NCBI GenBank assembly: GCA_964016885.1
Contig: OZ024748.1
Coordinates: 25,234,001 to 25,298,000 of the forward strand
Source: Eledone cirrhosa
Lineage: Eukaryota
Direction of reading: 5' to 3'
Length of the DNA: 64,000 bases
Part shown: one piece after another, positions 4,721 to 63,877 of the stretch
How the letters are laid out: each line of letters opens with the position of its first letter
Position numbering within the stretch: position 1 is the stretch's first letter
Position numbers and translations under genes: made by a program
The notes under the pieces: model-generated
What the model saw: the letters and a program-made list of their open reading frames with translations, nothing else
Databases searched by the model: none
Told to the model about the DNA's origin: nothing

Positions 4721-4767
<47 letters not shown>

Positions 4768-5358
4768 GCTTATCTATATATATAGTCTGCTCATCTATAT
4801 ATAGTCTGCTCATCTATATCTTTATATATATATATATAGTCTGCTCATCTCTATATATATAGTCTGGTCATCTATATCTTTATATATATATATAGTCTGC
4901 TCATCTATATATATATATAGTCTGCTCATCTATATATATATAGTCTGCTCATCTATATCTTTATATATATATATATATAGTCTGCTTATCTATATATATA
5001 TAGTCTGCTCATCTATATATATATAGTTTGCTCATCTATATATATATAGTCTGCTCATCTATATCTTTATATATATATAGTCTGCTTATCTATATATATA
5101 GTCTGCTTATCTATATATATATATAGTCTGGTCATCTATATCTATAGTCTGGTCATCTATATCTTTATATATATATATAGTCTGCTTATTTATATATAGT
5201 CTGCTTATCTATATATATAGTCTGCTTATCTATATATATAGTCTGGTCATCTATATATATAGTCTGGTCATCTATATCTTTATATATATATATAGTCTGC
5301 TTATTTATATATATAGTCTGCTCATCTATATATATAGTCTGCTCATCTATATCTTTAT

Positions 5359-5406
<48 letters not shown>

Positions 5407-6635
5407 GTTTAACATCCATATTCCACACTCGCATGAGTTTGGACGGGAGTTTTCTCACTTGAGGCAACAGTGGTTGTCTTACTCGTATAGGACTGTCTGG
5501 CTGGTTTTCTACGGCTGGATGCCCTTCCTAACACCAACCACGTTTACAGTGTGGACTGGGAGGTTTTACCGTGTTACCTACACGGCCACATTACAGCGTG
5601 GACTGTGTGTTTTTTTGTCGTGACACCTACACGACCTCATTTGTTTCGGGCTGGATGTTGTGGTACCAACATAACTTTACATTGAGAGGGGTGGTGTGGA
5701 TGGGGTGGGGGTGGTGGGAGACGGGGGTGTATTTTTGTTAGAGGTGCCTACTGACTGTAGGTTTCGCTTTGTACTTAGGCAAGGCGGGTCTTCTGTATGA
5801 CTGTGTAGCGCCAAAGATCTCGGTCCAGTGACATTGTCTTGGAGAGGTGTAAGTGTGTGAGATCGGAATTTATCAAGTCGTCCCAGGTTTTTCTGGGTCT
5901 GCCTACTCCGCTGCTTATCTACATATATAATCTGCTTATCTATATATACAGTCTGGTCATCTATATCTTTATATATATATATAGTCTGGTCATCTATATA
6001 CAGTCTGGTCATCTATATCTTTATATATATATATAATCTGCTTATCTATATATATAGTCTACTCATCTAAATATATAGTCTGGTCATCTATATCTTTATA
6101 TATATATAGTCTGTTTATCTATATATATAGTCTCGTCATCTATATATACAGTCTGGTCATCTATATCTTTATATATATATATAGTCTGCTTATATATATA
6201 TATAGTCTGCTTATCTATATATATAGTCTGCTCATCTATATATAGTCTGGTCATCTATATCTTTATATATATATATAATCTGCTCATCTATATATAGTCT
6301 GCTCATCTATATCTTTATATATATATATATAATCTGCTTATCTAAATATATAGTCTGGTCATCTATATCTTTATATATATATATATAGTCTGCTTATCTC
6401 TATATATATATAGTCTGGTCATCTATATCTTTATATATATAGTCTGCTCATCTATATATATAGTCTGGTCATCTATATATATAGTCTGGTCATTTATATC
6501 TTTATATATATATAGTCTGCTCATCTATATAAATATAATCTGCTCATCTATATCTTTATATATATATATATAGTCTGCTTATCTATATATATAGTTTGGT
6601 CATCTATATATACAGTCTGGTCATCTATATCTTTA
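4717..6635. repeat. (TA)n microsatellite grading into a variable-length minisatellite AGTCTG(C/G)T(C/T)ATCT(AT)n[CTTT(AT)n]
   Basis: Pure TA at 4717-4763, then units of ~19-37 bp related to the 31-bp satellite. Interrupted by the RTE at 5361-5910. Confidence 0.9.
5361..5910 (-). mobile_element. 5'-truncated RTE LINE (last ~45 codons + 3' UTR + (GAT)n tail)
   Basis: (CAT)15 is followed by the reverse complement of the sequence at ~40080-40610 / 27115-27597. Confidence 0.92.
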
Positions 6636-6740
6636 TACCTATATCAATGAACAGAGACCATCTCTATAAAAATATAGTGTGAGACCTCTCTTCATCTGTA
6701 TCTTATAGTTTGGAATATGGGTTGTATATACCCTGTATCT

Positions 6741-15700: not shown

Positions 15701-18700
15701 ATATCTTTATATTTATATAGTCTCTTCATCTATATCTTTATATCTATATAGTCTCTTCATCCATATCTTTATATCTATATAGTCTATTCATCTATATCTT
15801 TATATTTATATAGTCTCTTCATCTATATCTTTATATCTATATAGTCTCTTCACCTATATCTTTATATTTATATAGTCTCTTCATCCATATCTTTATATTT
15901 ATATAGTCTCTTCATCCATATATTTATATTTATATAGTCTCTTCATCCATATCTTTATATCTATAAAGTCTCTTCATCCATATCTTTATATTTATATAGT
16001 CTCTTCATCTATATCTTTATATCTATATAGTCTCTTCACCTATATCTTTATATTTATATAGTCTCTTCATCCATATCTTTATATCTATATAGTCTCTTCA
16101 CCTATATCTTTATATTTATAGAGTCTCTTCATCCATATCTTTATATTTATATAGTCTCTTCATCCATATCTTTATATCTATAAAGTCTCTTCATCTATAT
16201 CTTTATATCTATATAGTCTCTTCATCTATATCTTTATATCTATATAGTCTCTTCATCTATATCTTTATATCTATATAGTCTCTTCATCCATATCTTTATA
16301 TTTATATAGTCTCTTCACCTGTATCTTTATATCTATATAGTCTCTTCATCTATATCTTTATATTTATATAGTCTCTTCATCTATATCTTTATATTTATAT
16401 AGTCTCTTCATCCATATCTTTATATTTATATAGTCTCTTCACCTATATCTTTATATTTATATAGTCTCTTCACCTATATCTTTATATCTATATAGTCTCT
16501 TCATCTATATCTTTATATTTATATAGTCTCTTCACCTATATCTTTATATCTATATAGTCTCTTCATCTATATCTTTATATTTATATAGTCTCTTCATCTA
16601 TATCTTTATATCTATATAGTCTCTTCACCTATATCTTTATATCTATATAGTCTCTTCATCCATATCTTTATATTTATATAGTCTCTTCACCTATATCTTT
16701 ATATCTATATAGTCTCTTCGTCTATATCTTTATATCTATATAGTCTCTTCATCTATATCTTTATGTTTATATAGTCTCTTCATCTATATCTTTATATTTA
16801 TATAGTCTCTTCATCTATATCTTTATATTTATATAGTCTCTTCATCTATATCTTTATATTTATATAGACTCTTCATCCATATCTTTATATCTATATAGTC
16901 TCTTCATCCATATCTTTATATTTATATAGTCTCTTCATCTATATCTTTATATTTATATAGTCTCTTCATCTATATCTTTATATCTATATAGTCTCTTCAT
17001 CCATATCTTTATATCTATATAGTCTCTTCATCTATATCATCATATCTATATAGTCTCTTCATCTATATCTTTATATCCATATAGTCACTTCATCCATATC
17101 TTTATATCTATATAGTCTCTTCACCCATATCTTTATATTTATATAGTCTCTTCATCTATATCTTTATATTTATATAGTCTCTTCATCTATATCTTTATAT
17201 TTATATAGTCTCTTCATCCATATCTTTATATTTATATAGTCTCTTCATCCATATCTTTATATTTATATAGTCTCTTCATCTATATCTTTATATTTATATA
17301 GTCTCCTCATCCATATCTTTATATCTATATAGTCTCTTCATCCATATCTTTATATTTATATAGTCTCTTCATCTATATCTTTATATCTATATAGTCTCTT
17401 CATCCATATCTTTATATCTATATAGTCTCTTCATCCCTATCTTTATATTTATATAGTCTCTTCATCCATATCTTTATATTTATATAGTCTCTTCATCTAT
17501 ATCTTTATATTTATATAGTCTCTCACCTATATCTTTATATTTATATAGTCTCTTATCCATATCTTTATATTTATATAGTCTCTTCATCCATATCTTTATA
17601 TCTATATAGTCTCTTCATCCATATCTTTATATCTATATAGTCTCCTCATCCATATCTTTATATCTATATAGTCTCTTCATCCATATCTTTATATTTATAT
17701 AGTCTCTTCATCTATATCTTTATATCTATATAGTCTCTTCATCGATATCTTTATATTTATATAGTCTCTTCATCTATATCTTTATATCTATATAGCCTCT
17801 TCATCTATATCTTTATATCTATATAGTCTCTTCATCTATATCTTTATATGTATATAGTCTCTTCATCCATATCTTTATATCTATATAGTCTCTTCATCCA
17901 TATCTTTATATTTATATAGTCTCTTCATCTCTATCTTTATATCTATATAGTCTCTTCATCCATATCTTTATATTTATATAGTTTCTTCATCTATATCTTT
18001 ATATATATATAGTCTCTTCATCTATATCTTTATATTTATATAGTCTCTTCATCCATATCTTTATATCTATATATTCTCTTCATCTATATCTTTATATCCA
18101 TATAGTCTCTTCATCTATATCTTTATATTTATATAGTCTCTTCATCTATATCTTTATATTTATATAGTCTCTTCATCTATATCTTTATATTTATATAGTC
18201 TCTTCATCTATATCTTTATATCTATATAGTCTCTTCACCTATATCTTTATATCTATATAGTCTCTTCATCTATATCTTTATATCTATATAGTCTCTTCAT
18301 CTATATCTTTATATCCATATAGTCTCTTCATCTATATCTTTATATTTATATAGACTCTTCATCCATATCTTTATATTTATATAGTCTCTTCATCTATATG
18401 TTTATATCTATATAGTCTCTTCATCTATATCTTTATATTTATATAGTCTCTTCATCCATATCTTTATATTTATATAGTCTATTCATCTATATCTTTATAT
18501 CTATATAGTCTCTTCATCCATATCTTTATATTTATATAGTCTCTTCATCCATATCTTTATATTTATATAGTCTCTCCATCCATATCTTTATATTTATATA
18601 GTCTCTTCATCTATATCTTTATATCTATATAGTCTCTTCATCCATATCTTTATATTTATATAGTCTCTTCATCCATATCTTTATATTTATATAGTCTCTT

Positions 18701-20785
18701 CATCCATATCTTTATATTTATATAGTCTATTCATCTATATCTTTATATCTATATAGTCTCTTCATCCATATCTTTATATTTATATAGTCTCTTCATCCAT
18801 ATCTTTATATTTATATAGTCTATTCATCTATATCTTTATATCTATATAGTCTCTTCATCCATATCTTTATATTTATATAGTCTCTTCATCCATATCTTTA
18901 TATTTATATAGTCTCTTCATCTATATCTTTATATTTATATAGTCTCTTCACCTATATCTTTATATTTATATAGTCTCTTATCCATATCTTTATATTTATA
19001 TAGTCTCTTCATCCATATCTTTATATTTATATAGTCTCTTCATCTATATCTTTATATCTATATAGTCTCTTCATCCATATATTTATATCTATATAGTCTC
19101 TTCATCCCTATCTTTATATTTATATAGTCTCTTCATCCATATCTTTATATTTATATAGTCTCTTCATCTATATCTTTATATTTATATAGTCTCTTCACCT
19201 ATATCTTTATATTTATATAGTCTCTTATCCATATCTTTATATTTATATAGTCTCTTCATCCATATCTTTATATTTATATAGTCTCTTCATCTATATCTTT
19301 ATATCTATATAGTCTCTTCATCCATATCTTTATATCTATATAGTCTCCTCATCCATATCTTTATATCTATATAGTCTCTTCATCCATATCTTTATATTTA
19401 TATAGTCTCTTCATCTATATCTATATATTTATATAGTCTCTTCATCCATATCTTTATATCTATATAGTCTCTTCATCGATATCTTTATATTTATATAGTT
19501 TCTTCATCTATATCTTTATATCTATATAGTCTCTTCATCTATATCTTTATATTTATATAGTCTCTTCATCCATATCTTTATATCTATATATTCTCTTCAT
19601 CTATATCTTTATATCCATATAGTCTCTTCATCTATATCTTTATATTTATATAGTCTCTTCATCTATATCTTTATATTTATATAGTCTCTTCATCTATATC
19701 TTTATATTTATATAGTCTCTTCATCTATATCTTTATATCTATATAGTCTCTTCACCTATATCTTTATATCTATATAGCCTCTTCATCTATATCTTTATAT
19801 CTATATAGTCTCTTCATCTATATCTTTATATCTATATAGTCTCTTCATCCATATCTTTATATCTATATAGTCTCTTCATCCATATCTTTATATTTATATA
19901 GTCTCCTCATCTATATCTTTATATTTATATAGTCTCTTCATCTCTATCTTTATATCTATATAGTCTCTCCATCCATATCTTTATATTTATATAGTTTCTT
20001 CATCTATATCTTTATAAATATATAGTCTCTTCATCTATATCTTTATATTTATATAGTCTCTTCATCCATATCTTTATATCTATATATTCTCTTCATCTAT
20101 ATCTTTATATCCATATAGTCTCTTCATCTATATCTTTATATTTATATAGTCTCTTCATCTATATCTTTATATTTATATAGTCTTTTCATCTATATCTTTA
20201 TATTTATATAGTCTCTTCATCTATATCTTTATATCTATATAGTCTCTTCACCTATATCTTTATATCTATATAGTCTCTTCATCTATATCTTTATATCTAT
20301 ATAGTCTCTTCATCTATATCTTTATATCTATATAGTCTCTTCATCCATATCTTTATATCTATATAGTCTCTTCATCCATATCTTTATATTTATATAGTCT
20401 CCTCATCTATATCTTTATATTTATATAGTCTCTTCACCTATATCTTTATATTTATATAGTCTCTTCATCCATATCTTTATATCTATATAGTCTCTTCATC
20501 TATATCTTTATATTTATATAGTCTCTTCATCTATATCTTTATATTTATATAGTCTCATCATCCATATCTTTATATTTATATAGTCTCCTCATCCATATCT
20601 TTATATCTATATAGTCTCTTCATCCATATCTTTATATTTATATAGTCTCTTCATCGATATCTTTATATCTATATAGTCTCTTCATCCATATCTTTATATT
20701 TATATAGTCTCTTCACCTATATCTTTATATTTATATAGTCTCTTCACCTATATCTTTATATCTATATAGTCTCTTCATCCATATC
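6741..20785. repeat. 31-bp satellite, left block (~450 units), consensus ATAGTCTCTTCATCYATATCTTTATATYTAT
   Basis: Continuous 31-bp periodicity with recurrent variant units. Confidence 0.98.
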
Positions 20786-21035
20786 GTCTAATTCCTTAAT
20801 TCTATCGTATTCTCAAACAAAAAACAAAATCCTTCCCATTCTACTTCTTATAAATTACTTTAAATATATATATTATGCTACTTGAAAGTCAAAAAATCCG
20901 CTCTACGCCCTTCACCCTCCAGCTACTCCACGAGGGGCTGCAGTCAGCCACAATCTCTCTCCCCCTTCCCCTCTCTCTTTCTTCCCTTTCCCCTCTCTCT
21001 CTCTCTTCCCCTTCCCCTCTCTCTCATTCTTAGCT

Positions 21036-21076
<41 letters not shown>

Positions 21077-22071
21077 AGATAAGTTCTCCTTCATGTTTAT
21101 TCACTTTCGCCAATCCACCGCTGCTTCAATTATTCCTACTACGGTGTACCCATGTAAATCGTAAAGTACAAATTTTTCTCTATCTAGTCCACGCTCAATT
21201 TCGTACATAGTCCAAACATCCAATCTCGCAAAATCCGAAATCTGTATTTTTTGTTATCTATTTAAGGTTTAAATACGGTGTTTTTGTCGTATTGAACAGA
21301 ACAAATCTTGCAGTTTTGCTTTTTGTTAAATCGCTTGTTAAACATTCATAACCTTCCACGCTCAATTTCGTACATAGTCCAAACATCCAATCTCGCAAAA
21401 TCCGAAATCTGTATTTTTTTGTTATCTATTTAAGGTTTAAATACGGTGTTTTTGTCGTATTGAACAGAACAAATCTTGCAGTTTTGCTTTTTGTTAAATC
21501 GCTTGTTAAACATTCATAACCTTCCACGCTCAATTTCGTACATAGTCCAAACATCCAATCTCGCAAAATCCGAAATCTGTATTTTTTGTTATCTATTTAA
21601 GGTTTAAATACGGTGTTTTTGTCGTATTGAACAGAACAAATCTTGCAGTTTTGCTTTTTGTTAAATCGCTTGTTAAACATTCATAACCTTCCAGCTCCTC
21701 AATTCCTTAATTCTATCGTATTCTCCAATTCCTTAAATTCCTTAATTCTATCGTATCCCCAAACAAAAAACAAAATCCTTCCAATTCCTTAATTCTATCG
21801 TATTCTATCTTAATTCTCTCGTATCGTCCAATTCCTTAATTCTATCGTATTCTCAAACAAAAAACAAAATCCTTCCCATTCTACTTCTTATAAATTACTT
21901 TAAATATATATATTATGCTACTTGAAAGTCAAAAAATCCGCTCTACGCCCTTCACCCTCCAGCTACTCCACGAGGGGCTTCGGTCAGCCACAATCTCTCT
22001 CCCCCTTCCCCTCTCTCTTTCTTCCCTTTCCCCTCTCTCTCTCTTCCCCTTCCCCTCTCTCTCTCTCTTAG

Positions 22072-22164
<93 letters not shown>

Positions 22165-23867
22165 ATAAGTTCTCCTTCATGTTTATTCACTTTCGCCAAT
22201 CCATCGCTGCTTCAATTATTCCTACTACGGTGTACCCATGTAAATCGTAAAGTACAAATTTTTCTCTATCTAGACCACGATCAATTTCGTACATAGTCCA
22301 AACATCCAATCTCGCAAAATCCGAAATCTGTATTTTTTGTTATCTATTTAAGGTTTAAATACGGTGCTTTAGTCGTATTGAACAGAACAAATCTTGCAGT
22401 TTTGCTTTTTGTTAAATCGCTTGTTAAACATTCATAACCTTCCACGCTCAATTTCGTACATAGTCCAAACATCCAATCTCGCAAAATCCGAAATCTGTAT
22501 TTTTTGTTATCTATTTAAGGTTTAAATACGGTGTTTTTGTCGTATTGAACAGAACAAATCTTGCAGTTTTGCTTTTTGTTAAATCGCTTGTTAAACATTC
22601 ATAACCTTCCACGCTCAATTTCGTACATAGTCCAAACATCCAATCTCGCAAAATCCGAAATCTGTATTTTTTGTTATCTATTTAAGGTTTAAATACGGTG
22701 TTTTTGTCGTATTGAACAGAACAAATCTTGCAGTTTTGCTTTTTGTTAAATCGCTTGTTAAACATTCATAACCTTCCACGCTCAATTTCGTACATAGTCC
22801 AAACATCCAATCTCGCAAAATCCGAAATCTGTATTTTTTTGTTATCTATTTAAGGTTTAAATACGGTATTTTTGTCGTATTGAACAGAACAAATCTTGCA
22901 GTTTTGCTTTTTGTTAAATCGCTTGTTAAACATTCATAACCTTCCACGCTCAATTTCGTACATAGTCCAAACATCCAATCTCGCAAAATCCGAAATCTGT
23001 ATTTTTTGTTATCTATTTAAGGTTTAAATACGGTGTTTTTGTCGTATTGAACAGAACAAATCTTGCAGTTTTGCTTTTTGTTAAATCGCTTGTTAAACAT
23101 TCATAACCTTCCACGCTCAATTTCGTACATAGTCCAAACATCCAATCTCGCAAAATCCGAAATCTGTATTTTTTGTTATCTATTTAAGGTTTAAATACGG
23201 TGTTTTTGTCGTATTGAACAGAACAAATCTTGCAGTTTTGCTTTTTGTTAAATCGCTTGTTAAACATTCATAACCTTCCACGCTCAATTTCGTACATAGT
23301 CCAAACATCCAATCTCGCAAAATCCGAAATCTGTATTTTTTGTTATCTATTTAAGGTTTAAATACGGTGTTTTTGTCGTATTGAACAGAACAAATCTTGC
23401 AGTTTTGCTTTTTGTTAAATCGCTTGTTAAACATTCATAACCTTCCACGCTCAATTTCGTACATAGTCCAAACATCCAATCTCGCAAAATCCGAAATCTG
23501 TATTTTTTGTTATCTATTTAAGGTTTAAATACGGTGTTTTTGTCGTATTGAACAGAACAAATCTTGCAGTTTTGCTTTTTGTTAAATCGCTTGTTAAACA
23601 TTCATAACCTTCCACGCTCAATTTCGTACATAGTCCAAACATCCAATCTCGCAAAATCCGAAATCTGTATTTTTTGTTATCTATTTAAGGTTTAAATACG
23701 GTGTTTTTGTCGTATTGAACAGAACAAATCTTGCAGTTTTGCTTTTTGTTAAATCGCTTGTTAAACATTCATAACCTTCCACGCTCAATTTCGTACATAG
23801 TCCAAACATCCAATCTCGCAAAATCCGAAATCTGTATTTTTTGTTATCTATTTAAGGTTTAAATACG
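20786..23867. repeat. Composite block: two copies of a ~400-450 bp unit (CT-rich, (CA)n, (TA)n), each followed by 167-bp tandem repeats
   Basis: The unit recurs at a 1040-bp offset (atgctacttgaaag at 20875 and 21915). The 167-mer occurs x3 at 21189-21690 and x9.5 at 22275-23867, with near-identical copies. Confidence 0.95.
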
Positions 23868-26800
23868 CATCACCATTATTATTATAAGCCAGAGCCCCCC
23901 CCCCCCCCCCCCCCCACTCATCACCATTATTATTATTACGCGGACCAATCATAAGCCAGAGGCCTATACTATCGCTTGCCCGGTTGCCCTCGATATATGA
24001 TAGATGGATGGATGGATGGACGGACTGCGGAATACTGGAGAGTGGAAGGGAGAGAAAAATCTGGACGCTCAGAGCGAAAATGCCAAAGTTAAAGTCAAAT
24101 TCACCTCGTGGACGAGAATGCGAGCACTCCTCTTTGTTTCGTCCGCGGATGGCTAACATAACCCTATCTCCCCCCGCCCCCCACCACCCCCACCCTCCAA
24201 ACGCAACCCAAAACTTCAGAGTTGGTACCATAAATGTAGGCACCCTAAAGGGTCGCGCTAACGAGGTTGTAGAAATGCTTGAACGTAAGGAGGTCGATGT
24301 TTGTTGTATTCAAGAAACCAGGTGGAGGGCTGGGTCTGCTAGATTCATTGAGGGTAAAAAACGATGTTATAAGCTTTTCTGGGTGGGAAACGACGATGGG
24401 CTGGGTGGAGTAGGAATCATGGTAGCAGAAAAGTGGGCAGATAAGATAATAGACGTAAATAGAGTGAACGACAGAATAATTAAAATACGACTTGTCCTCA
24501 ATAGAACTACGGTGACAGTAATATCTGCGTACGCACCCCAATCCGGACTGCCCGGCACTATAAAAGACAGATTCTATGAGACACTGTTGCTAACTACCTC
24601 CCAAATATCTGACAGTGACTATATAATTATTGCAGGCGACCTAAATGGTCACGTTGGACAACATTGTGACGGCTACGACGAAATCCATGTAGGCTATGGG
24701 TTTGGTACTAGAAATGAGGAAGGCTCCAGAATCCTGGAATTCTGTGATGCAAATAACCTAACTATCTGTAACACTAACTTCAAAAAACGTGACAATCACC
24801 TGATCACCTATAGATCCGGGGAACACACAAGCCAGGTAGATTATATCCTTACCAGAAGACGTGACAGAGTGTCTGTTGTAAACACTAAATCCCTCCCCCA
24901 TGAAGAATGCACCTCCCAACATAGACTGATAATTAGCGACCTCATAGTTAGGACGAGACGTACTCGACAGCAGAAGAGGACTATCCTCAGGAGGAAAATA
25001 TGGAAACTAAAGGACCCCACAGCCAGAAATAAATTTCAAAGCATATTACTTGATGCTTTCGACAGTAAGGAAGAGCATCTAGAATCGGACAATATAGAGG
25101 GACAGTGGGAATTTCTGAAAGCAAACCTGCTGTTGGCGACAGGCGAAGTCTGTGGCTGGAGCAGGCCGGTAGGCAGGAGGAGAGTAACATGGTGGTGGAA
25201 CAGTAGGGTGGAGGGGTCAATTAAGGCCAAAAAGCAGGCTTGGAAAGTATGGCGGGATGGGGGAAGTAGAGTAGACTATCAAGTGGCCAGGAGGGAAGCT
25301 AGGAGAGAAGTGTACTTAGCAAGAAGGGAAGCTGAGGAAAGAAAGTTCAAGCATGTTCTACAATGCGATGACCAAAAACGTGAGGTGTTCAGGATTGCTA
25401 GGCAATGCGTCAAGGAAAACCGTGATATTGTCGGGGAGAAGTGTGTATTTAACGATGATGGCATACTTGCCATCACCGACACTGATAAGAAGGTAGCTTG
25501 GAAGTGTCACTATGAAAGGCTACTAAATGAGGAGAATAAATGGGAGAAAGACAGTCTCCCCCATATCGACCCAATAGAGGGACCAGCAGTGTTAGTCGAG
25601 GGGAGTATAATAAGTAAGGCAATCAAGGATATGAAGACGGGTAAGGCGGCTGGGCCTTCGGAAATAGTTGCTGAGATGCTGAAGGCATCTGGCACGGTGG
25701 GACACACCATGGTCACCCGCATAGTTAACCAAGTCGTACAGAATGGGGTTGTTCCGAAGGACTGGCATAGCAGCATCATCGTTAACTGTTATAAGGGTAA
25801 AGGAGACACCCTAGATAGGAGTAACTATAGAGGCATTAAATTAATCGACCAGGTTATGAAGGTCACGGAAAAAGTAATAGCGCAACTAATCAGAGAGAGA
25901 ATTGACCTAGATGAAATGCAGTTCGGGTTTGTGTCAGGCAAAAGCACCACAGACGCTCTTTTCATAGTACGACAACTACAGGAGAAGTACCTAGCTAAAG
26001 GTAAACCCCTCTACTTAGCTTTTGTCGACCTGGAGAAAGCCTTCGACAGAGTCCCCCGCTCCATTATCTGGTGGGCTCTTAGAAAACTAGGCGTTGACGA
26101 ATGGCTTGTGAGGGCTATACAAGCCATGTATAAAGAAACAGTCAGCAAGGTTAGAATTAACAACGAATATAGTGAAGAGTTTAGCGTAAAAGTTGGCGTC
26201 CATCAGGGCTCTGTTCTCAGCCCCCTACTATTTATTATTGCCCTTCAGGCTATAACAGAGGAGTTCAAGACAGGCTGCCCATGGGAACTCCTATACGCAG
26301 ACGACCTGACACTCATAGCGGAATCAATGGCCGAGCTAGAGAAGAAATTCCAAACATGGAAGCACGGCCTAGAGTCAAAAGGACTTAAAATTAACCTGGC
26401 TAAGACCAAAGTTCTAGTTTGTAGGAAAGAAAATAAGGCGGCGGTCCCTTCTGGGAAATGGTCGTGCTCGGTGTGTAGGAAAGGCGTAGGTAGAAACTCC
26501 ATTTTATGTCCTAAATGCAAAGTATGGGTGCATAAAAGATGTAGTGGGATCACAGGTAAGCTAACTAAGAACATAGATTTTACATGTGGCCGGTGTTCTG
26601 GTGCAATAAGTAGCAGCAAGTGCCCACAAAATACTAGCTCTTTCAATTGCGCAGAGGGTTCTATAGAAATAGTGGACAGCTTCCGTTACCTGGGCGATAA
26701 AATCAGCAGTGGGGGAGGGTGCTCTGAAAGTACTGTAGCTAGAGTCAGAACTGGTTGGAAAAAGTTCAGAGAGCTTATACCACTATTAGCTGCTAAAGGG

Positions 26801-27597
26801 TTCTCCCTAAAAATGAAAGGCAGGTTGTACGATGCCTGCATACGAACAGCAATGTTGCATGGTAGTGAGACCTGGGCATTGTGTGCAGAGGATATACGCA
26901 GACTAGAGAGGAACGAAGCTTGCATGCTCCGCTGGATGTGTAACAGTAATATACGTGAACGGCAAAGCATAAACGAACTAAGGAAAAAATTAGAGATAAG
27001 AGGGATCAGATGTTGTTTACTCGAGAGAAGGCTGCGTTGGTATGGACACGTGATGTGCATGAAAGTCGATTGCTGTATAACAAAGTGCAGGGCAATAAAG
27101 ATAGACGGTAGCCACGGAATAGGCAGACCTAGAAAAACCTGGGATGAGCTGATAAACTCCGACCTCACACACTTACACCTCTCCAAGACAATGTCACTGG
27201 ACCGAGACCTTTGGCGGTACTCAGTAACAGAGAAGACCCGCCTTGCCAGTAGGCATCTCTAACAAAATACACCCCCCCCCCATCCTCACCACCCCGTTCT
27301 ATGTAAAGTTATGTTGGTGCCGCGCCATCCAGGCCGAAACAAATGAGATCGTGTAGGTGTCACGACAAAAAAACACACAGTCCACGCTGTAATGTGGCCG
27401 TGTAGGCAACACGGTAAAAACCTCCCAGACCCACACTGTAAATGTGGTTGGTGTTAGGAAGGGCATCCAACTGTAGAAAATCTGCCAGACAGTCCTATGC
27501 GAGCAAGACAATCACTCTTGCCTCAAGTGGGACTACCCCCGTCCAAACCCATGCAAGCGTGGAACACGGACGTTAAACGTTGATGATGATGATGATG
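23868..27597 (+). mobile_element. Apparently full-length RTE-clade non-LTR retrotransposon
   Basis: Single uninterrupted ORF with APE and RT, a ~330-bp 3' UTR and the tail ggacgttaaacgttgatgatgatgatgatg. Confidence 0.95.
23984..27262 (+). CDS. RTE ORF: apurinic-like endonuclease + reverse transcriptase with inserted PHD-type zinc finger (true start probably ATG at 24008, 24080 or 24149)
   Basis: APE motifs TINVGTL, IQETRW, GDLNGH, QVDYIL, SQHR. RT motifs KAAGP, NYRGI, QFGF, FVDLEKAFD, GVHQGSVLSP, YADD (26294), FRYLG. RTE C-terminus RRLRWYGHV...GRPRKTW. C4HC3 cluster at 26465-26596. Confidence 0.95.
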   Translation: MPSIYDRWMDGWTDCGILESGRERKIWTLRAKMPKLKSNSPRGRECEHSSLFRPRMANITLSPPAPHHPHPPNATQNFRVGTINVGTLKGRANEVVEMLERKEVDVCCIQETRWRAGSARFIEGKKRCYKLFWVGNDDGLGGVGIMVAEKWADKIIDVNRVNDRIIKIRLVLNRTTVTVISAYAPQSGLPGTIKDRFYETLLLTTSQISDSDYIIIAGDLNGHVGQHCDGYDEIHVGYGFGTRNEEGSRILEFCDANNLTICNTNFKKRDNHLITYRSGEHTSQVDYILTRRRDRVSVVNTKSLPHEECTSQHRLIISDLIVRTRRTRQQKRTILRRKIWKLKDPTARNKFQSILLDAFDSKEEHLESDNIEGQWEFLKANLLLATGEVCGWSRPVGRRRVTWWWNSRVEGSIKAKKQAWKVWRDGGSRVDYQVARREARREVYLARREAEERKFKHVLQCDDQKREVFRIARQCVKENRDIVGEKCVFNDDGILAITDTDKKVAWKCHYERLLNEENKWEKDSLPHIDPIEGPAVLVEGSIISKAIKDMKTGKAAGPSEIVAEMLKASGTVGHTMVTRIVNQVVQNGVVPKDWHSSIIVNCYKGKGDTLDRSNYRGIKLIDQVMKVTEKVIAQLIRERIDLDEMQFGFVSGKSTTDALFIVRQLQEKYLAKGKPLYLAFVDLEKAFDRVPRSIIWWALRKLGVDEWLVRAIQAMYKETVSKVRINNEYSEEFSVKVGVHQGSVLSPLLFIIALQAITEEFKTGCPWELLYADDLTLIAESMAELEKKFQTWKHGLESKGLKINLAKTKVLVCRKENKAAVPSGKWSCSVCRKGVGRNSILCPKCKVWVHKRCSGITGKLTKNIDFTCGRCSGAISSSKCPQNTSSFNCAEGSIEIVDSFRYLGDKISSGGGCSESTVARVRTGWKKFRELIPLLAAKGFSLKMKGRLYDACIRTAMLHGSETWALCAEDIRRLERNEACMLRWMCNSNIRERQSINELRKKLEIRGIRCCLLERRLRWYGHVMCMKVDCCITKCRAIKIDGSHGIGRPRKTWDELINSDLTHLHLSKTMSLDRDLWRYSVTEKTRLASRHL

Positions 27598-30500
27598 ATA
27601 GTCTCTTCATCTATATCTTTATATCTATATAGTCGATTCATCTATATCTTTATATTTATATAGTCTCTTCATCTATATCTTTATATTTATATAGTCTCTT
27701 CATCTATATCTTTATATCTATATAGTCTCTTCATCCATATCTTTATATCTATATAGTCTCTTCATCTATATCTTTATATTTATATAGTCTCTTCATCCAT
27801 ATCTTTATATTTATATAGTCTCTTCATCTATATGTTTATATCTATATAGTCTCTTCATCTATATCTTTATATATATATAGTCTCTTCATCCATATCTTTA
27901 TATTTATATAGTCTATTCATCTATATCTTTATATCTATATAGTCTCTTCATCCATATCTTCATATTTATATAGTCTCTTCATCCATATCTTTATATTTAT
28001 ATAGTCTCTTCATCCATATCTTTATATTTATATAGTCTCTTCATCTATATCTTTATATCTATACAGTCTCTTCACATATATATTTATATCTATATAGTCT
28101 CTTCATCCATATCTTTATATTTATATAGTCTCTTCACCTATATCTTTATATCTATATAGTCTCTTCATCTATATCTTTATATCTATATAGTCTCTTCATC
28201 TATATCTTTATATCTATATAGTCTCTTCATCCATATCTTTATATCTGTATAGTCTCTTCATCCATATCTTTATATTTATATAGTCTCTTCATCTATATCT
28301 TTATATTTATATAGCCTCTTCATCTATATCTTTATATCTATATAGTCTCTTCATCCATATCTTTATATCTATATAGTCTCTTCCTCCATATCTTTATATT
28401 TATATAGTCTCTTCATCCATATCTTTATATTTATATAGTGTCTTCATCCATATCTTTATATCTATATAGTCTCTTCATCCCTATCTTTATATTTATATAG
28501 TCTCTTCATCCATATCTTTATATTTATATAGTCTCTTCATCTATATCTTTATATTTATATAGTCTCTTCATCTATATCTTTATATCTATATAGTCTCTTC
28601 ATCCATATCTTTATATCTATATAGTCTCTTCATCTATATCATCATATCTATATAGTCTCTTCATCTATATCTTTATATCCATATAGTCTCTTCATCCATA
28701 TCTTTATATTTATATAGTCTCTTCATCTATATCTTTATATCTATATAGTCTCTTCATCCATATCTTTATATTTATATAGTCTCCTCATCCATATCTTTAT
28801 ATCTATATAGTCTCTTCATCCATATCTTTATATTTATATAGTTTCTTCATCTAAATCATTATAACTATATAGTCTCTTCATCTATATCTTTATATTTATA
28901 TAGTCTCTTCATCCATATCTTTATATCTATATAGTCTCTTCATCTATATCTTTATATCCATATAGTCTCTTCATCTATATCTTTATATTTATATAGTCTC
29001 TTCATCTATATCTTTATATTTATATAGTCTCTTCATCCATATCTTTATATTTATATAGTCTCTTCATCCAAATCTTTATATTTACATAGTCTCTTCATCC
29101 ATATCTTTATATCTATATAGTCTCTTCATCCATATCTTTATATCTATATAGTCTCTTCATCCATATCTTTATATTAATATAGTCTCTTCATCTATATCTT
29201 TATATTTATATAGTCTCTTCATCCATATCTTTATATTTATATAGTCTCTTCATCCATATCTTTATATTTACATAGTCTCTTCATCCATATCTTTATATTT
29301 ATATAGTCTCTTCATCCATATCTTTATATTTATATAGTCTCTTCATCTATATCTTTATATCTATTTCGTCTCTTCATCCATATCTTTATATTTATATAGT
29401 CTCCTCATCCATATCTTTATATCTATATAGTCTCTTCATCCATATCTTTATATTTATATAGTCTCTTCATCCATATCTTTATATTTACATAGTCTCTTCA
29501 TCCATATCTTTATATTTATATAGTCTCTTCATCCATATCTTTATATTTATATAGTCTCTTCATCTATATCTTTATATCTATATAGTCTCTTCATCCATAT
29601 CTTTATATTTATATAGTTTCTTCATCTAAATCATTATATCTATATAGTCTCTTCATCTATATCTTTATATTTATATAGTCTCTTCATCCATATCTTTATA
29701 TCTATATAGTCTCTTCATCTATATCTTTATATCCATATAGTCTCTTCATCTATATCTTTATATTTATATAGTCTCTTCATCCATATCTTTATATTTATAT
29801 AGTCTCTTCATCTATATCTTTATATCTATATAGTCTCTTCATCCATATCTTTATATTTATATAGTTTCTTCATCTAAATCATTATATCTATATAGTCTCT
29901 TCATCTATATCTTTATATTTATATAGTCTCTTCATCCATATCTTTATATCTATATAGTCTCTTCATCTATATCTTTATATCTATATAGTCACTTCATCCA
30001 TATCTTTATATCTATATAGTCTCTTCATCCCTATCTTTATATTTATATAGTCTCTTCATCCATATCTTCATATTTATATAGTCTTTCATCTATATCTTTA
30101 TATCTATATAGTCTCTTCATCCATATCTTTATATTTATATAGTTTCTTCATCTATATCATTATATCTATATAGTCTCTTCATCTATATCTTTATATTTAT
30201 ATAGTCTCTTCATCCATATCTTTATATTTATATAGTTTCTTCATCTATATCTTTATATCTATATAGTCTCTTCATCTATATCTTTATATTTATATAGTCT
30301 CTTCATCCATATCTTTATATCTATATAGTCTCTTCATCTATATCTTTATATCCATATAGTCTCTTCATCTATATCTTTATATTTATATAGTCCCTTCATC
30401 CATTTCTTTATATTTATATAGTCTCTTCATCTATATCTTTATATCTATATAGTCTCTTCATCCATATCTTTATATCCATATAGTCTCTTCATCTATATCT

Positions 30501-33500
30501 TTATATTTATATAGTCCCTTCATCCATTTCTTTATATTTATATAGTCTCTTCATCTATATCTTTATATCTATATAGTCTCTTCATCCATATCTTTATATC
30601 CATATAGTCTCTTCATCTATATCTTTATATTTATATAGTCCCTTCATCCATTTCTTTATATTTATATAGTCTCTTCATCTATATCTTTATATCTATATAG
30701 TCTCTTCATCCATATCTTTATATTTATATAGTCTCTTCATCTATATCTTTATATCTATATAGTCTCTTCATCTATAACTTTATATCTATATAGTCTCTTC
30801 ATCCATATCTTTATATCTATTTAGTCTCTTCATCTATATCTTTATATTTATATAGTCTCTTCATCTATATCTTTATATCTATATAGTCTCTTCACCTATA
30901 TCTTTATATTTATATAGTCTCTTCATCTATATCTTTATATCTATATAGTCTCTTCATCTATATCTTTATATCTATATCTATATAGTCTCTTCATCTATAT
31001 CTTTATATTTATATAGTCTCTTCATCCATATCTTTATATTTATATAGTCTCTTCATCCATATCTATATATCTATATAGTCTCTTCATCCATATCTTTATA
31101 TTTATATAGTTTCTTGATCTAAATCATTATATCTATATAGTCTCTTCATCTATATCTTTATATTTATATAGTCTCTTCATCCATATCTTTATATCTATAT
31201 AGTCTCTTCATCTATATCTTTATATCCATATAGTCTCTTCATCTATATCTTTATATTTATATAGTCTCTTCATCCATATCTTTATATTTATATAGTCTCT
31301 TCATCTATATCTTTATATCTATATAGTCTCTTCATCCATATCTTTATATTTATATAGTTTCTTCATCTAAATCATTATATCTATATAGTCTCTTCATCTA
31401 TATCTTTATATTTATATAGTCTCTTCATCCATATCTTTATATCTATATAGTCTCTTCATCTATATCTTTATATCTATATAGTCTCTTCATCCATATCTTT
31501 ATATCTATATAGTCTCTTCATCCCTATCTTTATATTTATATAGTCTCTTCATCCATATCTTCATATTTATATAGTCTTTCATCTATATCTTTATATCTAT
31601 ATAGTCTCTTCATCCATATCTTTATATTTATATAGTTTCTTCATCTATATCATTATATCTATATAGTCTCTTCATCTATATCTTTATATTTATATAGTCT
31701 CTTCATCCATATCTTTATATTTATATAGTTTCTTCATCTATATCTTTATATCTATATAGTCTCTTCATCTATATCTTTATATTTATATAGTCTCTTCATC
31801 CATATCTTTATATCTATATAGTCTCTTCATCTATATCTTTATATCCATATAGTCTCTTCATCTATATCTTTATATTTATATAGTCTCTTCATCCATTTCT
31901 TTATATTTATATAGTCTCTTCATCTATATCTTTATATCTATATAGTCTCTTCATCCATATCTTTATATTTATATAGTCTCTTCATCTATATCTTTATATC
32001 TATATAGTCTCTTCATCTATAACTTTATATCTATATAGTCTCTTCATCCATATCTTTATATCTATATAGTCTCTTCATCTATATCTTTATATTTATATAG
32101 TCTCTTCATCTATATCTTTATATCTATATAGTCTCTTCACCTGTATCTTTATATTTATATAGTCTCTTCATCTATATCTTTATATCTATATAGTCTCTTC
32201 ATCTATATCTTTATATCTATATCTATATAGTCTCTTCATCTATATCTTTATATTTATATAGTCTCTTCATCCATATCTTTATATTTATATAGTCTCTTCA
32301 TCCATATCTATATATCTATATAGTCTCTTCATCCATATCTTTATATTTATATAGTCTCTTCACCTATATCTTTATATTTATATAGTCTCTTCATCCATAT
32401 CTTTATATTTATATAGTCTCTTCATCTATATCTTTATATCTATATAGTCTCTTCATCCATATCTTTATATTTATATAGTCTCTTCATCTATATCTTTATA
32501 TCTATATAGTCTCTTCATCCATATCTTTATATTTATATAGTCTCTTCATCTATATCTTTATATTTATATAGTCTCTTCATCTATATCTTTATATTTATAT
32601 AGTCTCTTCATCTATATCTTTATATGTATATAGTCTCTTCATCCACATCTTTATATCTATATAGTCTCTTCATCTATATCTTTATATTTATATAGTCTCT
32701 TCATCCATATCTTTATATCTATATAGTCTCTTTATCCATATCTTTATATCTATATAGTCTCTTCATCCATATCTTTATATCTATATAGTCTCTTCATCCA
32801 CATCTTTATATCTATATAGTCTCTTCATCTATATCTTTATATTTATATAGTCTCTTCATCCATATCTTTATATCTATATAGTCTCTTCATCTATATCTTT
32901 ATATCTATATAGTGTCTTCATCCATATCTTTATATTTATATAGTCTCTTCATCCATATCTTTATATTTATATAGTCTCTTCATCCATATCTTTATATTTA
33001 CATAGTATCTTCATCTATATCTTTATATTTATATAGTCTTTTCATCCATATCTTTATATCTATATAGTCTCTTCATCCATATCTTTATATTTATATAGTC
33101 TCTTCATCTATATCTTTATATCTATATAGTCTCTTCATCCATATCTTTATATCTATATAGTCTCTTCATCCATATCTTTATATCTATATAGTCTCTTCAT
33201 TCATATCTTTATATTTATATAGTCTCTTCATCCATATCTTTATATCTATATAGTCTCTTCATCCATATCTTTATATTTATATAGTCTCTTCATCCATATC
33301 TTTATATCTATATAGTCTCTTCATCCATATCTTTATATTTATATAGTCTCCTCATCCATATCTTTATATCTATATAGTCTCTTCATCCATATCTTTATAT
33401 TTATATAGTCTCTTCATCCATATCTTTATATTTACATAGTCTCTTCATCCATATCTTTATATTTATATAGTCTCTTCATCCATATCTTTATATTTATATA

Positions 33501-36500
33501 GTCTCTTCATCTATATCTTTATATCTATATAGTCTCTTCATCCATATCTTTATATTTATATAGTTTCTTCATCTAAATCATTATATCTATATAGTCTCTT
33601 CATCTATATCTTTATATTTATATAGTCTCTTCATCCATATCTTTATATCTATATAGTCTCTTCATCTATATCTTTATATCCATATAGTCTCTTCATCTAT
33701 ATCTTTATATTTATATAGTAGTCTCTTCATCCATATCTTTATATTTATATAGTCTCTTCATCTATATCTTTATATCTATATAGTCTCTTCATCCATATCT
33801 TTATATTTATATAGTTTCTTCATCTAAATCATTATATCTATATAGTCTCTTCATTTATATCTTTATATTTATATAGTCTCTTCATCCATATCTTTATATC
33901 TATATAGTCTCTTCATCTATATCTTTATATCTATATAGTCACTTCATCCATATCTTTATATCTATATAGTCTCTTCATCCCTATCTTTATATTTATATAG
34001 TCTCTTCATCCATATCTTCATATTTATATAGTCTTTCATCTATATCTTTATATCTATATAGTCTCTTCATCCATATCTTTATATTTATATAGTTTCTTCA
34101 TCTATATCATTATATCTATATAGTCTCTTCATCTATATCTTTATATTTATATAGTCTCTTCATCCATATCTTTATATTTATATAGTTTCTTCATCTATAT
34201 CTTTATATCTATATAGTCTCTTCATCTATATCTTTATATTTATATAGTCTCTTCATCCATATCTTTATATCCATATAGTCTCTTCATCTATATCTTTATA
34301 TTTATATAGTCCCTTCATCCATTTCTTTATATTTATATAGTCTCTTCATCTATATCTTTATATCTATATAGTCTCTTCATCCATATCTTTCTATTTATAT
34401 AGTCTCTTCATCTATATCTTTATATCTATATAGTCTCTTCATCTATAACTTTATATCTATATAGTCTCTTCATCCATATCTTTATATCTATTTAGTCTCT
34501 TCATCTATATCTTTATATTTATATAGTCTCTTCATCTATATCTTTATATCTATATAGTCTCTTCACCTATATCTTTATATTTATATAGTCTCTTCATCTA
34601 TATCTTTATATCTATATAGTCTCTTCATCTATATCTTTATATCTATATCTATATAGTCTCTTCATCTATATCTTTATATTTATATAGTCTCTTCATCCAT
34701 ATCTTTATATTTATATAGTCTCTTCATCCATATATATATATCTATATAGTCTCTTCATCCATATCTTTATATTTATATAGTTTCTTCATCTAAATCATTA
34801 TATCTATATAGTCTCTTCATCTATATCTTTATATTTATATAGTCTCTTCATCCATATCTTTATATCTATATAGTCTCTTCATCTATATCTTTATATCCAT
34901 ATAGTCTCTTCATCTATATCTTTATATTTATATAGTCTCTTCATCCATATCTTTATATTTATATAGTCTCTTCATCTATATCTTTATATCTATATAGTCT
35001 CTTCATCCATATCTTTATATTTATATAGTTTCTTCATCTAAATCATTATATCTATATAGTCTCTTCATCTATATCTTTATATTTATATAGTCTCTTCATC
35101 CATATCTTTATATCTATATAGTCTCTTCATCTATATCTTTATATCTATATAGTCTCTTCATCCATATCTTTATATCTATATAGTCTCTTCATCCCTATCT
35201 TTATATTTATATAGTCTCTTCATCCATATCTTCATATTTATATAGTCTTTCATCTATATCTTTATATCTATATAGTCTCTTCATCCATATCTTTATATTT
35301 ATATAGTTTCTTCATCTATATCATTATATCTATATAGTCTCTTCATCTATATCTTTATATTTATATAGTCTCTTCATCCATATCTTTATATTTATATAGT
35401 TTCTTCATCTATATCTTTATATCTATATAGTCTCTTCATCTATATCTTTATATTTATATAGTCTCTTCATCCATATCTTTATATCTATATAGTCTCTTCA
35501 TCTATATCTTTATATCCATATAGTCTCTTCATCTATATCTTTATATTTATATAGTCTCTTCATCCATTTCTTTATATTTATATAGTCTCTTCATCTATAT
35601 CTTTATATCTATATAGTCTCTTCATCCATATCTTTATATTTATATAGTCTCTTCATCTATATCTTTATATCTATATAGTCTCTTCATCTATAACTTTATA
35701 TCTATATAGTCTCTTCATCCATATCTTTATATCTATATAGTCTCTTCATCTATATCTTTATATTTATATAGTCTCTTCATCTATATCTTTATATCTATAT
35801 AGTCTCTTCACCTATATCTTTATATTTATATAGTCTCTTCATCTATATCTTTATATCTATATAGTCTCTTCATCTATATCTTTATATCTATATCTATATA
35901 GTCTCTTCATCTATATCTTTATATTTATATAGTCTCTTCATCCATATCTTTATATTTATATAGTCTCTTCATCCATATCTATATATCTATATAGTCTCTT
36001 CATCCATATCTTTATATTTATATAGTCTCTTCACCTATATCTTTATATTTATATAGTCTCTTCATCCATATCTTTATATTTATATAGTCTCTTCATCTAT
36101 ATCTTTATATCTATATAGTCTCTTCATCCATATCTTTATATTTATATAGTCTCTTCATCTATATCTTTATATCTATATAGTCTCTTCATCCATATCTTTA
36201 TATTTATATAGTCTCTTCATCTATATCTTTATATTTATATAGTCTCTTTATCTATATCTTTATATGTATATAGTCTCTTCATCTATATCTTTATATCTAT
36301 ATAGTCTCTTCATCCATATCTTTATATTTATATAGTCTCTTCATCTATATCTTTATATTTATATAGTCTCTTCATCCATATCTTTATATTTATATAGTCT
36401 CTTCATCCACATCTTTATATCTATATAGTCTCTTCATCTATATCTTTATATCTATATAGTCTCTTCATCCATATCTTTATATTTATATAGTCTCTTCATC

Positions 36501-39346
36501 CATATCTTTATATTTATATAGTCTCTTCATCCATATCTTTATATTTATATAGTCTCTTCATCCATATCTTTATATTTATATAGTATCTTCATCTATATCT
36601 TTATATTTATATAGTCTTTTCATCTATATCTTTATATCTATATAGTCTCTTCATCCATATCTTTATATCTATATAGTCTCTTCATCTATATCTTTATATC
36701 TATATAGTCTCTTCATCTATATCTTTATATTTATATAGTCTCTTCATCTATACCTTTATATCTATATAGTCTCTTCATGCATATCTTTATATTTATATAG
36801 TCTCTTCATCTATATCTTTATATCTATATAGTCTCTTCATCTATAACTTTATATCTATATAGTCTCTTCATCCATATCTTTATATCTATGTAGTCTCTTC
36901 ATCTATATCTTTATATTTATATAGTCTCTTCATCTATATCTTTATATCTATATAGTCTCTTCACCTATATCTTTATATTTATATAGTCTCTTCATCTATA
37001 TCTTTATATCTATATAGTCTCTTCAACTATATCTTTATATCTATATCTATATAGTCTCTTCATCTATATCTTTATATTTATATAGTCTCTTCATCCATAC
37101 ATTTATATCTATATAGTCTCTTCATCCATATCTTTATATCTATATAGTCTCTTCATCCATATCTTTATATTTATATAGTCTCTTCACCTATATCTTTATA
37201 TCTATATAGTCTCTTCATCCATATCTTTATATTTATATAGTCTCTTCATCTATATCTTTATATCTATATAGTCTCTTCATCCATATCTTTATATCTATAT
37301 AGTCTCTTCATCCATATCTTTATATCTATATAGTCTCTTCATTCATATCTTTATATTTATATAGTCTCTTCATCCATATCTTTATATCTATATAGTCTCT
37401 TCATCCATATCTTTATATTTATATAGTCTCTTCATCCATATCTTTATATCTATATAGTCTCTTCATCTATATCTTTATATTTATATAGTCTCTTCATCCA
37501 TATCTTTATATTTATATAGTCTCTTCATCCATATCTATATATCTATATAGTCTCTTCATCCATATCTTTATATTTATATAGTCTCTTCATCCATATCTTT
37601 ATATTTATATAGTCTCTTCATCTATATCTTTATATTTATATAGTCTCTTCATCTATATCTTTATATCTATATAGTCTCTTCATCTATATCTTTATATTTA
37701 TATAGTCTCTTCATCCATATCTTTATATTTATATAGTCTCTTCATCTATATCTATATATTTATATAGTCTCTTCATCTATATCTTTATATGTATATAGTC
37801 TCTTCATCTATATCTTTATATCTATATAGTCTCTTCATCCCTATCTTTATATTTATATAGTCTCTTCATCTATATCTTTATATTTATATAGTCTCTTCAT
37901 CTATATCTTTATATCTATATAGTCTCTTCATCCATATCTTTATATCTGTATAGTCTCTTTATCCATATCTTTATATCTATATAGTCTCTTTATCTATATC
38001 TTTATATCTATATAGTCTCTTCATCCATATCTTTATATCTATATAGTCTCTTCATCTATATCTTTATATCTATATAGTCTCTTCATCTATATCTTTATAT
38101 CTATATAGTCTCTTTATCCATATCTTTATATCTATATAGTCTCTTCATCTATATCTTTATATTTATATAGTCTCTTCATCTATATCTTTATATCTATATA
38201 GTCTCTTCATCTATATCTTTATATCTATATAGTCTCTTCATCAATATCTTTATATCTATATAGTCTCTTCATCCATATCTTTATATCTATATAGTCTCCT
38301 CATCTATATCTTTATATTTATATAGTCTCTTCATGTATATCTTTATATCCATATAGTCTCTTCATCCCTATCTTTCTATTTATATTGTCTCTTCATCTAT
38401 ATCTTTATATCTATATAGTCTCTTCATCCATATCTTTATATTTATATAGTCTCTTCATCCATATCTTTATATTTATATAGTCTCTTCATCTTTATCTTTA
38501 TATCTATATAGTCTCTTCATCCATATCTTTATATCTATATAGACTCTTCATCCCTATCTTTATATTTATATATTCTCTTCATGTATATCTTTATATCTAT
38601 ATAGTCTCTTCATCCATATCTTTATATCTAAATAGTCTCTTCATCTATATCTTTATATCTATATAGTCTCTTCACCTATATCTTTATATCTATATAGTCT
38701 CTTCATCCATATCTTTATATCTATATAGTCTCTTCATCCATATCTTTATATCTATATAGTCTCTTCATCCATATCTTTATATATATATAGTCTCTTCATC
38801 TATATCTTTATATCTATATAGTCTCTTCATCCATATCTTTATATTTATATAGTCTCTTCATCCATATCTTTATATTTATATAGTCTCTTCATCCATATCT
38901 TTATATTTATATAGTCTCTTCATCCATATCTTTATATTTATATAGTCTCTTCACCTATATCTTTATATTTATATAGTCTCTTCATCGATATCTTTATATT
39001 TATATAGTCTCTTCATCTATATCTTTATATTTATATAGTCTCTTCATCTATATCTTTATATTTATATAGTCTCTTCACCTATATCTTTATATTTATATAG
39101 TCTCTTCATCTATATCTTTATATCTATATAGTCTCTTCATCTATATCTTTATATCTATATAGACTCTTCATCCATATCTTTATATCTATATAGTCTCTTC
39201 ATCTATATCTTTATATTTATATAATCTCTTCATCTATATCTTTATATCCATATAGTCTCTTCACCTATATCTTTATATTTATATAGTCTCTTCATCTATA
39301 TCTTTATATTTATATAGTCTCTTCATCTATATCTTTATATCTACAG
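27598..39346. repeat. 31-bp satellite, right block (~380 units), ending at a splice acceptor
   Basis: Same unit as 6741-20785. The final unit reads TCTCTTCATCTATATCTTTATATCTACAG. Confidence 0.98.
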
Positions 39347-39407
39347 GGTGCTGTTGTATCATTGGCCATCAGTTATCCTTTTGAAACTGCAAGGACACGA
39401 ATGCAAG
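39347..39407 (+). CDS. SLC25A17: Exon (61 nt, phase 0 to 1) of PMP34/SLC25A17-like carrier: GAVVSLAISYPFETARTRMQ
   Basis: CAG|GGT...CAAG|GTAAGA. Carries the carrier signature Px[DE]xx[KR]x[KR] (PFETARTR) and aligns with remembered PMP34 [20 protein letters not shown]. Confidence 0.88.
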
Positions 39408-39562
39408 GTAAGAAATAGTCAATAAAATAAAGTGTCAGTAATGAGCCTGGGCCGATTTATTCGACTTTCCTGTCCCCCCAAATTGCTAGCCCTCTGCCTA
39501 TTATTTTGAGTTTGTAGGATTAAACATTTTAATTGTATTAAATATATGGAAAAATGTAATTA

Positions 39563-56162: not shown

Positions 56163-56229
56163 TTGATAATGATGGATATGAGAAAAAAACCTTTCCTCTG
56201 ATAAAGAAAATTATTCGTGATGAAGGAAT
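56163..56229 (+). CDS. SLC25A17: Exon (67 nt, phase 1 to 2) of PMP34/SLC25A17-like carrier: (V)DNDGYEKKTFPLIKKIIRDEG(I)
   Basis: Polypyrimidine tract + TAG|TT...GAAT|GTAAGT. In frame with the previous exon and carries the carrier motif IIRDEG. Confidence 0.88.
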
Positions 56230-57316: not shown

Positions 57317-57471
57317 TTTTGCAGTCTACCGAGGGTTTAGCTCAGCAATTCTGATCTTGTCGGGTTCATATTTCATATATTTCTATGTATTTAACACCCT
57401 TAAGAACATAGTTTCCATAGACAAAGAAAACTGGTTTTCTCTGAAATACCTCCTGATGGGATATTTTTCAG
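57317..57471 (+). CDS. SLC25A17: Exon (155 nt, phase 2 to 1) of PMP34/SLC25A17-like carrier: FAVYRGFSSAILILSGSYFIYFYVFNTLKNIVSIDKENWFSLKYLLMGYFS
   Basis: CAG|T...TCAG|GTAAGT. In frame. YRG motif; FIYFYVFNTLK matches PMP34 FVYFYTFNSLK. Confidence 0.9.
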
Positions 57472-63748: not shown

Positions 63749-63877
63749 CTGTAGTCAATGTGCTGATAACTTCACCATTCTGGAGTGCCAATACTCGGTT
63801 AAAGATGCAAGGAGTAAAACTTAACAGCAAAAAATTTCAGAATTATCGACAAAAACAATTGTATACTGGCGTTTTTG
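63749..63877 (+). CDS. SLC25A17: Exon (129 nt, phase 1 to 1) of PMP34/SLC25A17-like carrier: (A)VVNVLITSPFWSANTRLKMQGVKLNSKKFQNYRQKQLYTGVF
   Basis: Poly-T tract + AAG|CT...TTTG|GTAACT. In frame. VVNVL..P.W..NTRLK.QG is characteristic of PMP34 repeat 2. Confidence 0.92.

Follow-up and report, generated by a model that had tools for sequence, protein, structure and literature searches.

The 64-kb stretch of Eledone cirrhosa DNA analysed here (the window) carries exons 2 to 5 of an intact octopod PMP34/SLC25A17 gene, and the 61-nt exon that abuts the satellite is exon 2 of this gene. All nine exons were recovered by tblastn in the window plus flanks of 100 kb at either end, and a spliced alignment scored on protein alone placed the eight introns with zero indels. 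The spliced reading frame (9 exons, 312 aa) is identical to three Octopus PMP34s at 239-241 of 312 positions (77%), with no gaps; the translation of exon 4 shows 73-75% identity to three Octopus PMP34 proteins. The 61- and 67-nt lengths of exons 2 and 3 agree with the layout of human SLC25A17. Coding exon 1 lies 484-546 nt ahead of the window (L001:9454-9516) and exons 6-9 lie beyond it; intron 1 is 39,830 nt long, and its donor is weak (3.3 bits). Just 3' of that donor, at L001:9595, a small tandem repeat is shorter by 29 nt in contigs of the DNA-type runs X1 and X3, likely a nascent VNTR allele. The features of the window are as follows:

4736..6650, + strand: older sister arrays of the 31-bp family, with 19-37-nt units, interrupted by a dispersed repeat at ~5360-5910
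6687..6708, + strand: single degenerate unit copy in the gap that separates the sister arrays from the main one
6740..20785, + strand: 5' block of the 31-bp array, 453 units
20786..27598, + strand: RTE-type non-LTR retrotransposon, 6.8 kb, with 167-bp tandem repeats and an ORF of 1124 aa at 23888-27262
27599..39317, + strand: 3' block of the 31-bp array, 374 units including the terminal one
39318..39346, + strand: terminal 29-nt satellite unit, the authentic 3' splice-site tract ending in CAG (11.5 bits, a score exceeding that of 76% of 66 real acceptors)
39322..39326, + strand: candidate branch point TTCAT, its putative branch A at -22 (A39325)
39347..39407, + strand: PMP34/SLC25A17 exon 2, 61 nt, GAVVSLAISYPFETARTRMQ (zero-indel spliced alignment; a contig joins 39407 to exon 3)
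39408..39413, + strand: exon 2 donor AAG/GTAAGA, 10.1 bits; no other donor is within reach of the array's 3' end
56163..56229, + strand: PMP34 exon 3, 67 nt (spliced alignment; contig link from exon 2)
57317..57471, + strand: PMP34 exon 4, 155 nt (homology, spliced alignment)
63749..63877, + strand: PMP34 exon 5, 129 nt (tblastn, spliced alignment)

The satellite array of intron 1

The array sits wholly inside PMP34 intron 1 and comprises 827 units of 31 bp, or 25.8 kb of the 64-kb window, with 453 units in the block that starts at 6740 and 374 in the block from 27599 to 39346. An earlier note on this DNA had described a 26-kb satellite, which is right as to size, but the array is not continuous, since the 6.8-kb RTE insertion divides it. 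At the target site of the insertion, 18-20 nt of the satellite unit are duplicated. We take the element to be of the RTE class from its endonuclease and RT and its (GAT)n tail; it is young-looking, its 1124-aa frame being open and its 5' region duplicated, and it was inserted in sense orientation into the satellite.

Pyrimidines make up 70.6% of the array, G 3.4% and A ~26%, so that the satellite tract is an interrupted pyrimidine tract. The earlier description of units as pyrimidine-rich and nearly G-free thus holds, whereas the TAG ending ascribed to every one of them is found in 796 of 827; likewise the PTB-type motif TCTCTT, said to occur in each unit, is present in 727 of 827, including the terminal one, and does not discriminate the decoys. 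We counted 58 and 73 distinct unit variants in the array. After the AG, array units read TC, while the exon starts with GG, and CAG was found just twice within the array. Neither block contains AATAAA, ATTAAA or AGGT. Recursive (ratchet) splice sites juxtapose acceptor and donor as YAG/GT, and given the lack of AGGT in both blocks the array units do not belong to this class. The missing poly(A) hexamers likewise speak against capture of a terminal exon inside the array.

The terminal unit and the exon 2 acceptor

The terminal unit ends ...TCTTTATATCTACAG/GGT, with zero unique DNA between it and the 61-nt exon, which is PMP34 exon 2 by homology; the original observation that the acceptor of a real exon is the terminal satellite unit is thereby upheld. 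It agrees with the common unit across 26 nt (127 of 809 31-mers agree with it across its first 26 nt), and the real site differs from the decoys in having C for A at -6, C for T at -3 and G for T at +1. Within it, TTCAT matches the branch-point consensus yUnAy and has its A at -22, compared with -24 for the motif in typical units. Branch points have been placed within a range of 19-37 nt (PMC10078293, in the part available), and the candidate branch A at -22 falls within this range, 3' of the nearest decoy AG (-29). An upstream AG is equally close in 12 of 66 real acceptors. Contigs from two DNA-type runs, which are possibly the source of the assembly, cover 39318-39560 with no differences. 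The view that satellite sequence supplies the acceptor tract of exon 2 and, likely, its branch point is supported, as the earlier note had reasoned it must.

In the spliced alignment, acceptor 39347 is 20 points ahead of any other acceptor tried, over a range that began ~60 nt upstream and reached into the exon. A single contig, from run X4 (RNA-type; depth 2.4; kind of run unrecorded), reads 39375-39407 and then continues into exon 3, which indicates that exon 2 is spliced at its donor. This contig begins 28 nt inside exon 2, short of the acceptor, and X4 had no contig on exon 1, so the use of acceptor 39347 is predicted from homology.

Origin of the array

In the 3.0-Gb genome, all matches to an exact 34-nt pattern of the satellite (494 of 494) and to an exact 22-nt pattern (596 of 596) lie inside the window, the 596 all falling in PMP34 intron 1, and 100 other loci returned TA-rich low-complexity matches only. 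By these exact patterns and in these loci, the satellite has no copies at unrelated places and is not a member of a dispersed satellite family. The older sister arrays have a variable (TA)n ahead of the final G, and four of their units end in TACAG. The left flank of the array ends in TATCTAG, typical units in TAT(C/T)TATATAG, and the right flank reads TATCTACAG, so that both array ends can be read as variant unit ends.

The earlier note had proposed that the satellite either grew out of the acceptor region or replaced it. We favour growth, by tandem duplication of the exon 2 acceptor tract, on the grounds that the family is private to this locus, that variant ends occur at both flanks, and that a second acceptor-amplifying repeat exists in this genome. 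The latter is a true acceptor mirage (a class discussed below) in a muscle-type myosin heavy chain gene at L110:7107-7680 (G000:C27:18037107-18037680), consisting of a 130-bp unit repeated 4.4 times. Its four decoys ...TTTATTTCAG/CCTTGAAA precede the real acceptor and share its AG context along with 8 bases of the exon, and it is one case among 66 other acceptors. Local amplification is well supported; that the acceptor seeded the array, as opposed to being overrun by it, is only probable. Similarity to the terminal unit shows no gradient, nearby units resembling it no more than remote ones, and the search for an orthologous intron gave none: 91 pattern matches in a metagenome scan led to two loci, neither of them an octopod intron (L121 has a PMP34-like frame with no introns at these positions, and L122 is without an open PMP34-like frame).

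Tandem arrays are frequent in the sample studied. They number 69 and cover 23% of 664 kb; five of the eight PMP34 introns hold one, and six of the seven arrays of at least 5 kb lie in the PMP34 region. The chance that an array ends within 30 nt of a given acceptor is ~0.3%, and 0.03% for arrays of at least 5 kb, values that are biased by the inclusion of the PMP34 region. At the sampled density, cases of this sort would be expected to run into the tens genome-wide. Among 52 further loci, whose boundaries are approximate, none had a long array that extended to an acceptor, and one degenerate donor duplication was found.

The other PMP34 arrays are of several kinds. Intron 2 has a 37-bp array (40624-55291), divided by an antisense RTE fragment (~47120-49590); this stretch contains 323 donor-like sites, and the unit carries CAT/GTATGT, whose hexamer is that of the real exon 1 donor. 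Introns 4 and 8 hold 48-bp arrays (58162-62508 and L012:568-3630), and a 16/32-bp array in intron 6 (L011:186-8218) begins 12 nt 3' of the donor. Dispersed repeats that match the two 48-mers occur in 17 and 28 of 100 other loci, these two arrays being amplified parts of such repeats. In the myosin genes, a 192-bp unit present twice repeats a donor (L108:316-706), a degenerate 24-bp repeat spans another donor (L067 ~1707-1763, read along the gene), and, in the G000:C27 gene (L106-L112), microsatellites of the CT, TTA, TATC and CAAC types serve as pyrimidine tracts of several real acceptors.

The family could also have been seeded upstream, in the (TA)n-rich sister arrays, and have spread exonward until it replaced the old tract up to the CAG, with splicing proceeding as it would under growth from the acceptor. 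We regard this as unlikely, although it has some points in its favour: the sister arrays, 33 kb upstream, are more diverged and include units ending in TACAG, the unit tail resembles a TA/TATT microsatellite, and the terminal unit lends itself to being read as a copy cut off at position 26, with three unique bases after it. Such a history requires a deletion or conversion that ended precisely at the CAG and left a site that equals the top 0.3% of AGs in ordinary introns and has a branch motif at -22, whereas direct duplication of an acceptor is observed elsewhere in the same genome.

Strength and surroundings of the decoy acceptors

Sites were scored with weight matrices built from the animal's own sites in three genes only: 67 of 78 candidate junctions were kept (no indel, margin of at least 9) and 11 dropped, and 66 junctions trained the matrices, the focal site being excluded from training. 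Array AGs, 825 in all, score 5.9 bits at the median and 8.4 at most, and none of them reaches the 11.5 bits of the terminal unit; the gap of ~5.5 bits between the latter and the median decoy stems from positions -6, -3 and +1. The ~830 near-identical decoy acceptors announced by the earlier note are thus there in number, but they are not near-identical to the real site at these three positions. Among the real acceptors, 10 of 66 score under the decoy median, so that the decoys overlap the weakest 15% of real sites, and the acceptor of PMP34 exon 8 is itself TAG/TC. In view of these two facts the decoys are still plausible sites, which would not be inert by their sequence.

What the array does lack is donors, as none of its 832 GTs passes the fifth-percentile donor threshold. 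A donor lies within 300 nt of only 6 of the 825 decoys, and this donor is exon 2's own. The picture of an exon competing on equal terms with 830 sites was therefore overstated, no decoy reaching the real score and six having a donor within 300 nt; the inference that exon definition selects the exon is by contrast a sound one. As to the products, the decoy at 39287 (-60) is in frame and would add 20 codons with no stop, those at 39318 (-29) and 39256 (-91) would shift the frame, and a premature stop would follow five of the six nearest decoys. Unused pseudo-splice sites outnumber real ones in ordinary introns too (PMC1557585, in the part available), and those of this genome have 1.8 AGs per kb that score at or above the median decoy. 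Compared with such pseudo-acceptors, the decoys are ~9-fold denser (half of 32 AG per kb), have a regular period and extend up to the true site.

Two further candidate discriminators were considered. In predicted folds, the probability of being unpaired is mostly 0.01-0.27 for decoy AGs and 0.05 for the real AG, with a median of 0.30 for real acceptors; the tract from -12 to -3 is predicted to be more open at the real site (0.69 versus ~0.33 at decoys). RNA structure thus gives no clear separation, the real AG being predicted as paired like the decoys. The PTB motif TCTCTT does not mark decoys, as it is carried by the real site as well.

Appreciable use of the nearest decoys, by which the array would tune PMP34 output through frameshifts from -29 and -91 and through 20 extra residues near the N-terminus from -60, seems improbable to us. 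Six decoys would yield exons of at most 300 nt, the one at -60 being in frame and stop-free, decoy scores overlap those of the weakest real sites, and pseudo-site use has a donor-side precedent in the human 6-16 and CBS genes (PMC1557585, in the part available). On the other hand, the real site is ahead by ~5 bits, mirages are reported as not disturbing splicing in the available parts of PMC3087553 and PMC3902484, and no insertion occurs here in 11 listed Octopus PMP34 isoforms, from species in which the array is possibly absent. Equally doubtful is a broader idea, that the ~825 modules are splicing-competent, are transcribed from as far as 33 kb ahead of the real one and act as a length-variable rheostat in which copy number and decoy leak, or sequestration of U2AF/PTB, set PMP34 output.

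That the array is a functional RNA, serving as a sink for PTB or U2AF or as a series of steps by which the 39.8-kb intron is removed piecemeal, we hold to be very unlikely: each pre-mRNA would offer 727 UCUCUU motifs and 825 AG modules, but the array is without an AG/GT ratchet site, the UCUCUU motif is on the real site too, unrelated long arrays occupy four other PMP34 introns, and PMP34 is a housekeeping carrier. An assembly artefact, with the array inflated or misjoined to the exon, is barely credible, since contigs of two DNA-type runs cross the unit-exon junction and the 58 and 73 distinct unit variants, together with an insertion bearing a target-site duplication, imply real DNA.

Comparison with known splice-site minisatellites

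The closest parallels are the mirages of amphioxus (Adh3, the globins BflGb6 and BflGb9, TnC, PGBD5), in which intron/exon boundaries on both sides are duplicated with splicing undisturbed, according to the available parts of the reports (PMC3087553, PMC3902484). Like these, the array described here is a locus-private splice-site minisatellite that reiterates AGs upstream of the true acceptor of an intact gene. It is a tandem array private to its locus, and its splice signals are homologous to the authentic site (26-nt identity, with the AG kept and TAG/T for CAG/G). Unlike the mirages, as far as the consulted portions of these papers describe them, whose units straddle the boundary and take in part of the exon, the unit here stops at the AG and includes no exon base. 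Copies also differ in number, 3-6 in the BflGb6 mirage (same sources, same portions) as against 827 here, and the true site differs from the units at -6, -3 and +1.

A donor-side counterpart is provided by the minisatellites of human F7 IVS7 (37 bp), 6-16, CBS IVS13, LMNB2 and PDGF, in which the first of 5-25 copies is the authentic donor. Only the exon-proximal donor is used in F7, where the VNTR does not disturb splicing, while in 6-16 and CBS the next two pseudo-sites are used as well (PMC1557585, in the part available). In PMP34 too, the unit at the end of the minisatellite is the authentic splice site, as is the winning, exon-proximal copy in the human cases. In contrast to these donor VNTRs, whose F7 pseudo-sites are identical in the portion of that report at hand, the PMP34 array is on the acceptor side, has at least 30-fold more copies and has weaker decoys.

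Proposed scenario and implications

Our preferred reading, to which we give a probability of roughly 0.72, is that the array is a locus-private minisatellite, likely a duplicated exon 2 acceptor tract and likely neutral, whose last unit wins through having the top score and being nearly the sole one with a donor in range. Slippage or unequal exchange would have amplified a 29-31-nt segment holding branch point, pyrimidines and AG, an amplification of arbitrary local sequence such as would be occurring all over this genome, and selection would retain CAG/G solely in the exon-adjacent copy. U1 at the strong exon 2 donor would then define the 61-nt exon. AG scanning proceeds from the branch point (PMC1431707, in the part available); with the putative branch point at -22, 3' of the decoy AG at -29, the CAG would be the first AG met. 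Judged from sequence, site strength plus exon definition are likely to suffice for correct splicing, and the nearest decoys may be used on rare occasions.

The structure is real and striking, and is most likely a neutral and extreme example of a class already described, whose correct splicing can be explained conventionally. No new mechanism is indicated; what is new is the scale, and units without exon bases. In the literature searched, which was covered in part, we found no report of this locus or of cephalopod acceptor satellites.

Even if neutral, the array is a natural experiment, and a clean one, on how acceptors that come first are passed over in a long invertebrate intron: hundreds of near-uniform, donor-less modules precede one better site, such that site strength and exon definition can be separated by junction and lariat reads. 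It also extends splice-site minisatellites to a cephalopod, at ~30 times the copy numbers of the cited papers. Should the rheostat reading be true after all, acceptor-born satellites would be a recurrent route to intron inflation and new isoforms in cephalopods.
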